A stretch of 64,000 bases of DNA from Candidatus Aminicenantales bacterium. Lineage in GTDB: Bacteria; Acidobacteriota; Aminicenantia; Aminicenantales; UBA4085. Where the stretch lies: contig JBEKTZ010000007.1 in NCBI GenBank assembly GCA_049515535.1, positions 62,001 to 126,000 of the forward strand, written 5' to 3'. The notes below the pieces were generated by a model. That model searched no databases. It saw only the letters and a program-made list of their open reading frames with translations, and had not been told where the DNA came from. Positions within the stretch are counted from its first letter, which is position 1. Each line of letters starts with the position of its first letter. A program made the position numbers and the translations under genes. This document shows, in pieces, positions 19,136 through 54,115 of the stretch.

Positions 19136-19247
19136 TTTATACGTTCGCGGCGCAAAACCCCAATTTTTAAATTGGGGCTAAAAGCGCCGCTCAGTATCAA
19201 CCCTGAGCATACCCCGGGCTTCAGCCTGGGGAGTCGAATGGGTTGAT
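19136..19247 (+). mobile_element. Cloverleaf non-autonomous element, copy A
   Basis: TTTAT-[102 bp]-TTGAT; homologous to the copies at 34895, 36992 and 54004. Confidence 0.8.
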
Positions 19248-23282: not shown

Positions 23283-23556
23283 GGAATCACCTCGGTTGAG
23301 ATTTGACGAAAAGGACGGATATTCCGGTTTTTTCTTGGGGACGATTTCTTTTCCTTCAATGTCCGGGCATCCCGAGATCGAACATGGGCAAACTATAATC
23401 CACTCCGTCGATTTGTGTCAATGAATGGGGCCGGCGGACCGGGGTGCCGTTTCGGGGACATGATTTCCTGTCCCCATGGGATCCTCTTTGCCGCCTCCTC
23501 CGGAAGTTGACAAGCGGGGGCCGTTCCCTCTAGGATAACATCGGCCGCGGCGGCCG

Positions 23557-34600: not shown

Positions 34601-34877
34601 GTTCGGGCCGCCGCCCCGCAGCGTGCTCAATCTTTGCCAATACGGGAGGATCAAACTCCTGGCCCAGAAATTGAAGATCAAAGCGGTGGACCGCCTGGAC
34701 GAGCGCCTGATCTTCAAGTTCCTTCCGGCTACGACCGTCGCCCTCGACCGTATGACGAAGCTTCTCAACCGACACGCCGGGACCATGACTCCCCAGGGGG
34801 TGATGAGCCTGCCCCTTCGCGCCCGGGGCGAGGAGGACTTTCTGAGTGAAACGATCGCCGCCTTGAAGGAGTTATAG
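31626..34877 (+). CDS. mfd: Transcription-repair coupling factor
   Basis: UvrB-like N-terminus, CarD/RID (VHADYGVG), CGDVGYGKTEV, DEEQRFG, QLRGRVGR, TRCF tail. Confidence 0.97.
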   Translation: MSLDFLKDVSEFKDFVRALENNERRVRISGLADPAKPFFFSFLARSLPHKSLVYIQPGEFSPARFEERCAFFLSRLGSPLLARSFPPLTESLYQEAPPSLDAVSSRMRFFYDLLIRPPALVVTNLIGLLRPVPEPDRLPGLFLRLDKNSSYERDRLLQTLAAFGYIREDLISFRGEYAGRGGIVDVFSPWRNAPFRIEFGGDEIVSIREFDLSTQRSIRRLDSVLLPSLLESAGPGARSVPFTRYIKDAVFIIDRVEDVDKEWDETRAELAAGENPSEGDLSALWNEVREKAVIAGEFAPDQGPKDFHFPFQSVPRFDNKIPFFLDYMRRLQRERDRCYIFLSSPAIRKKIGDLLAENRIESRDSETALANPTSGELILLLGDLERGFCFPREKISFFGETDIITEEKVVVSRPSVRPSLTQFQDLKSGDYIVHADYGVGVFQGLLRMDVDGSAREFMELRYRDDDKLFVPVEDLNLVQKYAQVGAALPPLDKLGTNSWQKTKGRTKKAVEQLAKELLELYAQRKAAKGFGFSAEGDWQTEFEKTFEYEETEDQLRSIREIKNDMEADSPMDRLLCGDVGYGKTEVAMRAAFKAVMDGKQVAILCPTTVLASQHMKTFTGRLVLFPVRVAELTRLQSKAEQQKIVDDLKKGRLDVIIGTHRLLSKDVEFFDLGLLIVDEEQRFGVKHKEKIKHMKANIDVLTLTATPIPRTLNLSLTGLRDISLIETPPRDRLAVHTVVTTFSPKLVATAVKQELARDGQVYYIFNKIEEMEPMAALIEKWVPQAKVVTIHGRMTPRELERRMLDFIERKYNVMVSTTIIENGIDIPLVNTLIVHRADHFGLAQLYQLRGRVGRSSRQAFAYFLVPPFQELTPPAKRRLEALKEFSELGSGFRLAVKDMEIRGAGNVFGAKQHGAMEAVGFDYFIHLLEQTIRELKGEAVEEVKSEINLKVDIRIPEDYLPQMNLRLNLYKRISSAENLDEIRVIEDEIKDRFGPPPRSVLNLCQYGRIKLLAQKLKIKAVDRLDERLIFKFLPATTVALDRMTKLLNRHAGTMTPQGVMSLPLRARGEEDFLSETIAALKEL

Positions 34878-34894
34878 AAATGTCCTATAATAAA

Positions 34895-35006
34895 TTGATA
34901 CGTTTGACGGCGCCAAACCCCGATTTTAAATCGGGGTTAAAAGCGCCGCTCAGTATTAACCCTGAGCATACCCCGGGCTTAAGCCCGGGGAGTCGAATGG
35001 GTTGAT
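34895..35006 (+). mobile_element. Cloverleaf element, copy B
   Basis: TTGAT-[102 bp]-TTGAT. Confidence 0.8.
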
Positions 35007-36976: not shown

Positions 36977-36994
36977 GGGCCGAGGCCCTTTTTT
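36977..36994 (+). terminator. Short intrinsic terminator
   Basis: GGGCC-GA-GGCCC followed by T6, after the SurA-like gene. Confidence 0.45.
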
Positions 36995-37102
36995 ATACGT
37001 TCGACGGCGCAAAACCCCGATTTTCAAATCGCGCTTTTGCGCCGCTCAGTATTAACCCTGAATATACCCCGGGCTTCAGTCCGGGGAGTCGAATGGGTTT
37101 AT
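36992..37102 (+). mobile_element. Cloverleaf element, copy C
   Basis: TTTAT-[101 bp]-TTTAT; the right pentamer contains the stop codon of the convergent gene. Confidence 0.8.
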
Positions 37103-37668
37103 TTCTTGTCCGGCTCTTTCTTGTCCGCGCCCATGTGCGCGGGCTGATCTTCCTTGAAGTCGATCTTGCGTGAAACCGGCCATTCGCCCAGGAGGACATG
37201 TCGCGAGCCGCCCATCTGGGCGAAAATCCTGACGAAATAGGTCTTCCACGCGGGGTTGCTCTTGAAATCCTCCAGCCGTTTGCCTTCGACGCCGAAATTG
37301 CACTTCAGCGTGATGGGATCGCTCCACTCGCCGGGAAGGACCGGCTTGCTGCCTATCGCCAGGAGAAAATGGTCGCCTAAGTTGTCTGCATCATCCTTAT
37401 TCTTGAAGATCCCGTTGAAATAGACATACCGGAGAGGCTCGGCCGATATGTTTTTGACGCGGAACGTGATCGTCGGGACGAGCGTCAGCTTGGGCCGCGG
37501 CCATTGTTTGTACTCTTTGGCCACCCAAGCCGTGCCCAACACCTCGAGCTGCAAAGCGCCCTTGACTTGCTCATCGGTCATCGTCTTGCATGCGGCGAGA
37601 AACCCGAGGAAAGAGACGAGGATCGCGATGCCGGCCGTCAAGCCGATGACTCTTTGTCCTTTTTTCAT
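37099..37668 (-). CDS. Hypothetical lipoprotein
   Basis: Lipobox FLAAC; SD AGGAG. Confidence 0.75.
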   Translation of the reverse strand: MKKGQRVIGLTAGIAILVSFLGFLAACKTMTDEQVKGALQLEVLGTAWVAKEYKQWPRPKLTLVPTITFRVKNISAEPLRYVYFNGIFKNKDDADNLGDHFLLAIGSKPVLPGEWSDPITLKCNFGVEGKRLEDFKSNPAWKTYFVRIFAQMGGSRHVLLGEWPVSRKIDFKEDQPAHMGADKKEPDKK

Positions 37669-46398: not shown

Positions 46399-46419
46399 GA
46401 GTTCTTTCGAATCCGGATC

Positions 46420-46522
46420 CTATCCCCCGACCCTCTCCGGAGGGCGGGGGATTTTTTTTTATAGATATTCGGCCCAGTGCTTGATCGGAAGAAGCTCGGT
46501 CCGTTTCGAGGCCAGGGCCTGG
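46420..46522. repeat. Left direct repeat: terminator plus the last ~64 bp of carB
   Basis: Matches 53966-54175 with 2 mismatches once the 107-bp cloverleaf insertion is removed. Confidence 0.9.
46422..46460 (+). terminator. Intrinsic terminator (left copy)
   Basis: ATCCCCCG-A-CCCTC-TCCG-GAGGG-CGGGGGAT plus T-run. Confidence 0.85.
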
Positions 46523-46586
46523 GTCATTGCTCTCGCCCTGGGAATGGCTATAGCGGTTGGCTGCTTAGGCAAAAAACGATTATCTA

Positions 46587-47686
46587 ATGTTAACGCATTA
46601 AGATATGTTACAGAGCCAGCGGATTTTCTTTAGTGACCACGAGCGGCGGGCTTTAAGGATGGCCGACCAGATCAAATCCAAGTTCTGGAACCACCGATTC
46701 GTCGTCGCTTCATATCGCGTTTGTTTCCAGATTTGTTCCTGAGGATTGAGCCCCGGTTGATAGGGCGGAAGATAAGCCAGATGGAAACGCGGGTGCTTTT
46801 GAAGAAAACGATCCACCGGTTCTCCTTTATGCCACCGCGCGCGATCGACATAAAGCCAGATCGCATAGCCGCGAAGACGCCGGTAAAGATGCCGCAAAGC
46901 TTTCATGAAGCCTTCCCGGTCTCCTCGTTCCGTACGGATGATCCCGTAACGCCCCAGGAGAGGAGCCACCCAACCCGAGAGATTAAGCCGTTGTCGATGT
47001 TGGCTGGTCGTGGGGATGCGAAAAGAATGTCCTCTCTTGGCCCATCCCCGTCCCAATCGCGGATGGAGGGTGAACCCCGTCTCATCCTGAAAGACCACCG
47101 TTTCCCGAGGCCCCAGATTTTGAAGTTTTTTTTAACTCCCGGCGAAATTGCTTCGCTTCTTCCGCCCGGGCTTGAAGATAGACATAACTGGCTCTTTTTA
47201 GCCGATAACCCAGTTGGTGCATCCAAGCTTGAGCTTGTCGCACTTTCAGTTTCAAACCATAGCGGCGTTTTAAGTGCTCGACGAGAGTCGGTCCGTCCCA
47301 GCGAGACCGGTTCAAGCCAAAATCTTGAGGGGATTGCTCTAAATGCCGTTCCACCTCCTGGGCGATCTGCGGGGTCAGCCGGGACGGGCGTCCCGGGATC
47401 GGTTTGCTCTTCAGGGCTTTTAACCCGTCGGCATTTACCGCCCGAATCCATCGATTCAGGCTCATACGTGTCAGCCCTAAAACCTGGGAAGTCCAGCCGG
47501 GCCGTTGCCCCTCGACGATTAAAAGAAGGGCGGCAATCTTCAACCCCGTCCAAGCCCCGGGCGTGTCCTTGGCGTAGGCCACCAGGCTCTCCCGGGTCAC
47601 CTCCGGATGATGGATGTCGATAGGTTCCATACCAACAGTTTAACACAAAACAGGCTCACTCGTAACAATATTAATTGCGTTAACAT
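46587..47686 (-). mobile_element. IS630-family insertion sequence (1100 bp)
   Basis: TIRs ATGTTAACGCA...TGTTAC; TA duplication (46585-86, 47687-88) in a CTAG target. Confidence 0.92.
46598..47630 (-). CDS. IS630 transposase, two ORFs joined by a frameshift at A8
   Basis: HTH ORF (PGRPSRL, W....L) ends after ELKK; DDE ORF has FQDETG, YVDRARWH, LNPQEQIW. Confidence 0.9.
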
Positions 47687-47796
47687 TAGCAAGAAAAATA
47701 CTCGGAAAAAAACGGCCGTGTCAACTGTTGTTCGCAAAAAAAACTTGACAGGAACTCTAATTTTAATATGATAAATTCAATAGTCAAAAGGAGAGG

Positions 47797-53967: not shown

Positions 53968-54006
53968 ATCCCCCGACCCTCTTCGGAGGGCGGGGGATTT
54001 TTTTTT
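53968..54006 (+). terminator. Intrinsic terminator (right copy)
   Basis: Same hairpin as 46422, with a TTCG loop and T-run. Confidence 0.8.
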
Positions 54007-54115
54007 ATACATTCGACGGCGCAAACCCCCGATTTTTAAATCGGGGTAAAAGCGCCGCTCAGTATTAACCCTGAATATACCCCGGGCTTCTGCCCGGGGA
54101 GCCGAATGGGTTTAT
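54004..54115 (+). mobile_element. Cloverleaf element, copy D
   Basis: TTTAT-[102 bp]-TTTAT; the empty homologous site is at 46458-46462. Confidence 0.85.

Follow-up and report, generated by a model that had tools for sequence, protein, structure and literature searches.

A 106-107-bp repeat family of Candidatus Aminicenantales with the probable organization of a guide-directed IS200/IS605-type PATE

PATEs (palindrome-associated transposable elements) of Haloquadratum walsbyi have no terminal inverted repeats, carry IS605-related palindromes near their ends, and insert without target duplication; they are too short to code, occupy strain-specific positions, include core-deleted single-hairpin forms, receive small repeats inserted in their palindromes, and are mobile despite broken resident IS200 genes (PMC3119063). 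The family of 106-107-bp repeats considered here shares these properties, and all of the testable features listed for PATEs (PMC3119063, PMC4810608) were found in it. It differs from the Haloquadratum PATEs in its bacterial host records (Aminicenantes-lineage and deltaproteobacterial), in its unrelated sequence, and in its middle, where instead of the remnant of a coding core there is a REP-like doublet scaffold whose central segment is complementary to either end.

IS608 chooses its target by DNA guides, in that a tetramer 5' of each hairpin pairs with the cut site (A+16:T-3, A+17:T-4); guide/site pairs of this type include AAAG/TTAC and GAAT/TCAA (PMC5934647). The family shares with IS608 and ISDra2 a guide at the 5' foot of the hairpin, the cross-pairing register, and insertion 3' of a target tetramer (PMC5934647), and the ISDra2 target TTGAT is one form of its pentamer; it differs from both in having neither tnpA nor tnpB, a right tail of 15-16 nt, and A or C as its first base. 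Guides that covary with left and right motifs, including TTTAT versus TTCAT, are also found in ISGst1-5 and the PATEs of Geobacillus stearothermophilus, where one TnpA serves several element families in trans (10.1101/2023.03.14.532601). There the covariation separates TnpB/IscB-coding families (10.1101/2023.03.14.532601), whereas here guide and motif vary together between 107-bp copies of a single family, with changes in all four base directions; searches for an RNA-guided nuclease gave none. REP doublets, REPINs, and BIMEs are likewise intergenic, multi-copy, and built of two inverted imperfect hairpins (PMC3733652, PMC8266576, PMC6006769); unlike these, the element is two-ended and guide-directed, inserts precisely, and has no GTAG/CGTC tag and no linked RAYT. 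The motifs TTCGAC, GTCGAA, and CTGAGC are absent from the main text of PMC3733652.

The family is very probably a non-autonomous IS200/IS605-type ('peel-and-paste') element of the PATE kind, that is, two ends without a gene between them. It is new: no description was found in the literature searched, although related sequences could stand in supplementary element tables. Since this kind of element has been described before (PMC3119063), the novelty is lower, and with the guide rule also established the finding extends existing knowledge rather than changing it.

Window copies and their ends

The window is the whole 64,000-nucleotide stretch that was analysed, part of contig C7 of a 3.45-Mb, 32-contig source assembly (G000). 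The four copies reported in the initial annotation were re-found at 19136-19247, 34895-35006, 36992-37102, and 54004-54115, all on the + strand and all intergenic. Without the left pentamer, copies A, B, and D measure 107 bp and copy C 106 bp, and at 106-107 bp the element is too short to encode a transposase. Their parts are as follows.

19136..19140, + strand: copy A target pentamer TTTAT (CL = TTAT), host DNA outside the element, from empty alleles
19141..19247, + strand: copy A element, 107 bp, between a GH38 mannosidase gene and a hypothetical gene, both on the - strand
19154..19157, + strand: copy A left guide AAAA, reading TTAT, from guide/target covariation
19158..19177, + strand: copy A left subterminal hairpin, bearing the compensatory double change
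19194..19203, + strand: copy A central segment GTATCAACCC, complementary to the left junction TTKATAC and the right end GGGTTGAT, from covarying helices HL and HR and the fold of A
19208..19211, + strand: copy A right guide CATA, reading TGAT, from guide/target covariation
19212..19231, + strand: copy A right subterminal hairpin, from the fold and comparison with IS200 ends
19243..19247, + strand: copy A right end TTGAT (CR = TGAT), which moves with the element and is missing from empty alleles
34895..34899, + strand: copy B target pentamer TTGAT, from alignment
34900..35006, + strand: copy B element, 107 bp, between mfd and a SurA/PrsA-like gene
34914-34917 and 34967-34970, + strand: copy B guides CAAA and CATA
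34918-34936 and 34971-34990, + strand: copy B hairpins
36992..36996, + strand: copy C target pentamer TTTAT, from the empty allele in runs X2 and X4
36997..37102, + strand: copy C element, 106 bp, left hairpin decayed
37011-37014 and 37063-37066, + strand: copy C guides AAAA and TATA
37099-37101, - strand: TAA stop of ORF 37099-37668, formed by the copy C right end
46416..46522, + strand: empty version of site D, a duplicated carB 3' end and adjoining hairpin without the element, 97% identical over 107 bp to the joined D flanks
54004..54008, + strand: copy D target pentamer TTTAT, from the paralogous empty site, where the pentamer lies at 46458-46462
54009..54115, + strand: copy D element, 107 bp
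54023-54026 and 54076-54079, + strand: copy D guides AAAC and TATA
54112-54114, - strand: TAA stop of carB, formed by the copy D right end

A sigma70-like match (10/12) at 34863-34891 ends a few bases before copy B, which may be part of the leader of the SurA/PrsA-like gene. Directly after the carB duplication, within 46416-47700, is an IS630 transposase remnant (family match 46598-47098).

Copy A is missing from three of four related-strain sequencing runs. In runs X3 and X7 position 19138 is joined to 19246, with 107 bases skipped, and in run X4 position 19137 is joined to 19246, with 108 skipped; these empty alleles lose the right TTGAT and retain the left TTTAT, which in X4 is one T shorter. 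Copy C is missing from two of the four runs (X2 and X4), 36991 being joined to 37098 with 106 bases skipped and 5 letters shared; because the X2 contig and the window are the same but for 19 positions in about 2,650 bases, the copy C insertion is polymorphic between very close strains. No empty allele of copy B was present among the runs compared. The source genome itself contains two paralogous empty sites, that of site D and one on contig C3, where the empty version reads TTTAT and the filled one has TTTAT on the left and TTGAT on the right. Sites C and D leave the left/right register ambiguous; copy A and the C3 paralogue are informative. In their empty versions the left pentamer is present and the right one is gone, as expected from the earlier proposal that the left pentamer is the target and the right one belongs to the element. 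The co-segregation of the right pentamer with CTGAGC or CTGAAT among the four window copies is also as first described.

In a wider set of copies, 66 of 116 have the same tetramer on the left and on the right and 50 do not, so the two do not represent a target-site duplication. Insertion is precise, takes place 3' of a T-N-A-(T/C) tetramer without duplication, and leaves the element with its own right cleavage tetramer. Terminal inverted repeats are absent and palindromes lie near both ends; the bases 5' of the target pentamer are unconstrained except for a mild T bias at the adjacent position. On one strand or the other, every T-N-A target includes a stop codon (TAA or TGA, or the complement of either), which is inherent to the motif.

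Guide tetramers, fold, and central segment

The initial annotation had compared the family with IS200/IS605 single-strand elements without locating guides. These are present, and the comparison is strengthened: the four bases 5' of each element hairpin complement the cleavage tetramers according to the IS608 rule, with guide position 1 paired to site position 2, guide 2 to site 1, and guide 4 to site 4. Fourth-position pairing is part of the rule in IS608 and can be read off the combinations AAAG/TTAC and GAAT/TCAA.

The guide analysis covered 121 canonical copies under 21 genome labels (some perhaps the same assembly), parsed from 189 right-end matches; the 68 unparsed matches include window copy C, and those inspected were interrupted by inserts, cut off at contig ends, or decayed in the left hairpin. 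Metagenome loci (60) were left out; the register of five-C stems was adjusted, and in one case the guide was assigned manually. On the left, guide 1 and target 2 (n = 121) combine as A:T 22, C:G 47, G:C 9, T:A 4, T·G 33, and other 6, giving Watson-Crick pairs in 82/121 and, counting T·G, pairing in 115/121. With targets shuffled within genomes 51.8 Watson-Crick pairs are expected and 0 of 20000 shuffles reach 82; the copies are related and hence not independent events, but each target base lies in a separate host site. The agreement is seen within single genomes, in 15/16 copies of the source genome (7.5 expected), 26/28 of G024 (11.8 expected), and 8/8 of G015. Between subfamilies, guide position 4 and site 4 change together from A:T (72) to G:C (40); three source-genome copies with guide AAAC are mismatched at this position.

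On the right, Watson-Crick pairing is found in 93 of 116 copies (84.9 expected, p 3e-4) and T·G in 4, so that 97 are paired in sum; guide/site combinations include CATA/TGAT (26), TATA/TAAT (19), AATA/TTAT (8), and CAAG/TGAC (32). The 19 right ends that mismatch guide position 1 include those of copy D and four other TTTAT-ended copies of the source genome, and the unparsed copy C has the same combination of guide and right end as copy D. A reading of the right end by the left guide was tried for these and not adopted: 10 of the 19 mismatched ends are Watson-Crick to the left guide, and over all copies within genomes the agreement is weak (38/116 versus 32.8 expected, p 0.03), which makes it a lead. 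As judged from the compared sequences, one-base guide changes are shown to retarget the element among TGAT, TTAT, and TCAT within a single genome.

The four window copies fold strongly, with z-scores of -4.1 to -7.2 and none of 200 shuffles equalling any copy on either strand. The initial annotation had each folding as a four-way junction. This does not hold for copies A and B, whose minimum-energy DNA folds on the + strand have two long arms; the predicted folds of C and D are cloverleaves with a 4-bp arm 2. In an intact consensus-type copy the cloverleaf is best at -34.4 kcal/mol, versus -24.7 for a hand-built two-arm alternative. The proposed closing stem TTCGAC/GTCGAA is exact in C and altered in A (TTCG-C), B (TTTGAC), and D (GCCGAA); its core TTCG/CGAA is kept across the family but, being mostly invariant, gives little information on pairing. 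Arm 2 is Watson-Crick in 67/117 copies at pair 1 and 50/117 at pair 2, with no compensatory change, and its GCTCAG is almost fixed though pairing is lost in several lineages. Given this decay of arm 2 without compensation, a four-way junction was rejected as a family-wide conserved feature. The compensatory double change noted in arm 1 of copy A (CCCCAATTT/AAATTGGGG) is real and was seen in that single copy.

The central segment, GTATYAA in the window subfamily and GGGTYAA in the sister subfamily, complements the left junction; two positions are T:A in 75 and C:G in 42 copies, and A:T in 75 and C:G in 42, so that 117/117 are paired. The central RTYAACCC also complements the right end, with A:T 71 and G:C 41 at one position (n = 112) and T:A 27, C:G 19, G:C 3, T·G 45, T-T 16, and other 2 at the third (n = 112); this covariation, on both sides, rests on few evolutionary events. 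Template switching at quasi-palindromes can produce such paired changes without selection. The middle is possibly a REP-like doublet in origin, or possibly an IscB-type end, in view of the similar pairing of GUCAA with a UUGAC further on in the HEARO consensus. Simpler TTCGAC..GCTCAG doublets, which the initial annotation mentioned for other genomes, do exist: complete examples with 2-4 nt in place of the arms occur at three loci (L292, L341, and L370) of the 83 viral-collection loci searched, most of the others being chance matches.

Candidate helper and alternative explanations

For an element of the PATE kind, a Y1 HUH transposase (IS200 TnpA) acting in trans would bind both hairpins on single-stranded DNA at the replication fork; a circle of 106-107 nt would be excised and then reinserted. 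The source genome has two Y1 matches. One is an IS200 tnpA interrupted by a stop codon; the other, a RAYT-like gene of 355 aa, has terminal repeats of its own. The IS200 element (L013, C9:107900-108490), whose internal stop is TAA, has hairpin loops that differ from those of the repeat family and is accompanied by a miniature family of its own; the gene into which it is inserted presumably encodes an IS1-type transposase. Intact relatives of it number 11 in genome G026, with a different left guide/target pair.

A second IS200 clade of the same order (L381, L446, L474-L480, and L500; NCBIfam NF033573) has a right hairpin, CCCCGGGCTTYAGCCCGGGG, that is identical or one base off, matching arm 3 of the element at 23/24 bases. 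Its autonomous members have the guide/site combinations AAAA/TTAT, CAAA/TGAT, GAAA/TCAT, and TAAA/TAAT, and 13 of 14 parsed ends obey the guide rule. The likeness covers only about 24 bases: the two differ in left hairpin and spacers, and the right tail is 15-16 nt in the element versus 8-11 in the autonomous ends. With the same right-hairpin 20-mer and the same guide/target set, this clade would be the likeliest helper. It was not found in the source assembly, and many matches to it sit at contig ends. Among genomes with this TnpA that were searched for the element, none was found in G001, G009, G022, G032, and G033, and two weak matches in G013. The near-complete G151, with 71 copies, has no IS200-class TnpA among its three Y1 matches, which are RAYT-like only.

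A longer autonomous version with the same ends, one expectation of the initial annotation, was not found in at least 119 genome-collection loci. None occurred in 60 metagenome loci, where the search pattern matched the miniature form by chance, and viral contigs and plasmids gave 0 and 0; no transposase gene was flanked by full element ends among the Y1 loci inspected. A GIY-YIG link, also raised there, failed to appear: the two genome matches were a UvrC-sized frame and a small one without the element in its surroundings, a crude motif check detected none beside simple doublets, and the literature search was also without such a link. TnpB zinc-ribbon searches gave no match in six carrier genomes, and IscB RRXRR searches none in 41 relatives, with the search control also silent. 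Locus L468 (G174:C34:83682-83870) contains an apparently frameshifted RRXRR-family frame (IscB/Cas9-like N-terminus) with no element seen upstream.

The alternative that fares best, though quite unlikely, is a REPIN/BIME-like REP doublet that would owe its spread to a domesticated RAYT/TnpA-REP or to some other HUH enzyme and would have acquired its IS200-like hairpins later. The scaffold TTCG(AC)..GCTCAG..CTGAGC..GTCGAA does amount to two imperfect hairpins of which simple versions exist, and class-2 (RAYT-like) Y1 genes are present in every carrier genome checked, including G151 with no IS200 TnpA. However, no inspected RAYT-like gene is flanked by the element, many having unrelated terminal repeats, and in place of a GTAG/CGTC tag the hairpin feet read CAAA/AAAA/GAAA/TAAG and CATA/TATA/AATA/CAAG. 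Each of the two guides varies together with its own fixed cut site, and the insertions are polar and precise, whereas TnpA-REP of E. coli cuts CT dinucleotides 5' or 3' of the REP (PMC8266576).

A host-selected structured RNA that is not mainly mobile DNA (a regulatory element, a terminator, or a relic of an IscB/TnpB omega-RNA) is very improbable. The strong folding would suit it, PATE-derived RNA is reported functional in Halobacterium (PMC4615843), and the HEARO first stem GUCAA/UUGAC resembles the pairing of the central segment; yet the Rfam check gave no family at threshold, its matches being weak ones to HgcC (at most 24.2 bits, gathering 50) and to HEARO (RF02033) on the - strand of one sister copy (18.7 bits, gathering 83). 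Copies are present or absent among close strains beside unrelated flanking genes, and the TnpB and IscB searches described above (six carrier genomes; 41 relatives, control silent) gave no match. A MITE or recombinase element, such as an IS630 MITE at TA, with the pentamers as its target duplication or crossover core, is scarcely credible: both ends read TTKAT and are identical in 66/116 copies, sites C and D are ambiguous in register, and an IS630 remnant lies in the window, but the ends differ in 50/116, terminal inverted repeats are lacking, the target base tracks an internal guide base, and the empty sites of copy A (three runs) and C3 keep the left pentamer and not the right, which contradicts duplication.

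Distribution, strand orientation, and stop codons

That the PATE-like elements of the window belong to a genomic family was borne out by BLAST with the four copies, which found 18 full copies in the source genome. In one of these the right hairpin loop carries an insert; the identity of the remaining 17 is 83-100%. A sister type bounded by TTGAC has four copies there (three by BLAST and one by pattern search). The element is found in 13 of 41 relatives, a patchy and bursty spread, and the exact pattern in 10 of 151 class genomes, with a maximum of 71 copies in one genome (G151, 5 contigs). Named carrier records, among at least 119 genome-collection loci, are mostly Candidatus Aminicenantes, the others being deltaproteobacterial, Thermodesulfobacteriota, Syntrophaceae, and Eubacteriales bins. 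Copies border unrelated genes and are present or absent between close strains; a core-deleted single-hairpin form exists (L125), and some copies have nested insertions in hairpin loops. A small palindromic insert lies in the right-hairpin loop at C9:67988-68137 of the source genome, at L007 and L010, and in run X4, and sister copies hold other nested palindromes, resembling described repeats that target PATEs. In many metagenome contigs (L230-L289) a variant with a rebuilt left arm lies in a conserved larger repeat, preceded by GCTGCGG and followed by CACGCC, and may now be part of a composite repeat.

Other repeats were observed in the same genome. A short palindromic repeat at 23449-23481 of the window has copies on at least six contigs, sequences like it flank RAYT-like Y1 genes in relatives, and run X7 has a 3,564-base insert in place of window 23458-23491. 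A second multi-hairpin miniature family (C1:75571, C3:80466, C3:168846, C6:210075, C7:182024, C9:140789, C12:22898, C13:83557, and C16:9207) starts after TGAC-like tetramers and has the hairpin of the resident IS200, of which it is probably the PATE. A third hairpin family, ending CCCTTGAC and often in tandem pieces, occurs at C1:375010, C1:171915, C2:350974, C3:182794, C5:214800, C6:78577, and C7:175454.

IS608 and ISDra2 are known to be oriented on the lagging-strand template (PMC6006769). In G026, a single contig for which the origin was taken as dnaA (503.6-504.9 kb) and the terminus as the opposite point, 53 of the 64 exact left-end matches of the sister subfamily listed (to 3.37 Mb) are on leading-strand sequence (p 5e-8); this sequence is the lagging-strand template, so the sister copies are oriented in the same way. 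Beyond 3.37 Mb 8/9 right-end matches have this orientation, as do 9/11 IS200 copies of G026. GC skew in G026 is noisy (20 samples, means +0.010 and -0.009); in the source genome, 16/22 copies of both subfamilies pooled agree with a weak local GC skew. The downstream gene is on the element's strand in 50/70 loci, and gene orientation could account for part of the strand bias.

All six source-genome copies that end in TTTAT, C and D included, have inserted at a target whose TTA serves a gene on the opposite strand as its stop codon TAA, a pattern recognized post hoc and in one genome only. The TTTAT end restores the last codon base and the stop in frame, leaving the proteins unchanged. Five of the six genes have family matches in frame (carB, fucose-isomerase-like, DUF6786, metallo-beta-lactamase fold, and AhpC/TSA); the sixth has no family match. 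The two source-genome copies that combine a TTTAT target with a TTGAT end lie away from stops. Among tolerated sites 4-13% are stops, by motif, a share that by estimate may be up to about twice as high since gene calls cover 81% of the genome.

Stop-codon targeting by the whole family is unsupported outside the TTTAT-ended type. By a cruder coding test, in which 19/116 copies were untestable and two expected source-genome genes were missed, stops were hit by 0/19 TGAC/TGAC copies, 0/4 TCAC/TCAC copies, 7/43 TGAT targets, and 1/15 TTAT targets with a different right end. Copies presumably persist where they are harmless, and those ending in TTTAT would be tolerated between the last codon and TAA because they bring an identical A-TAA along. 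Selective retention would explain why mismatched ends avoid stops, but does not fully explain six of six. Re-supply of a stop codon was not found stated for IS200/IS605 elements in a full-text literature search.

A more elaborate reading, possible but doubtful, would make the element a chimera of IS200 guide-hairpin modules set in the loops of a REP-like doublet, with the inverted central copy of the pentamer as a self-encoded switch: pairing with the target junction or the element's own end would lock a landed copy, and the alternative cloverleaf would bring the two cut sites together so that the copy could be excised; the left guide might then read the right end as well. One subfamily would then have specialized on stop codons, its end having evolved to return TAA. 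Should the enzyme, in addition, not be IS200 TnpA, which the near-complete carrier G151 does not have, the element would represent a new pairing of HUH enzyme and element.

The family provides a compact natural test set for DNA-guided target choice, in which single-base guide changes switch the target and empty alleles fix the ends, and it is suited to retargeting work on HUH transposases. The copies at stop codons point to a simple way in which elements of this kind could be maintained in genomes dense with genes.
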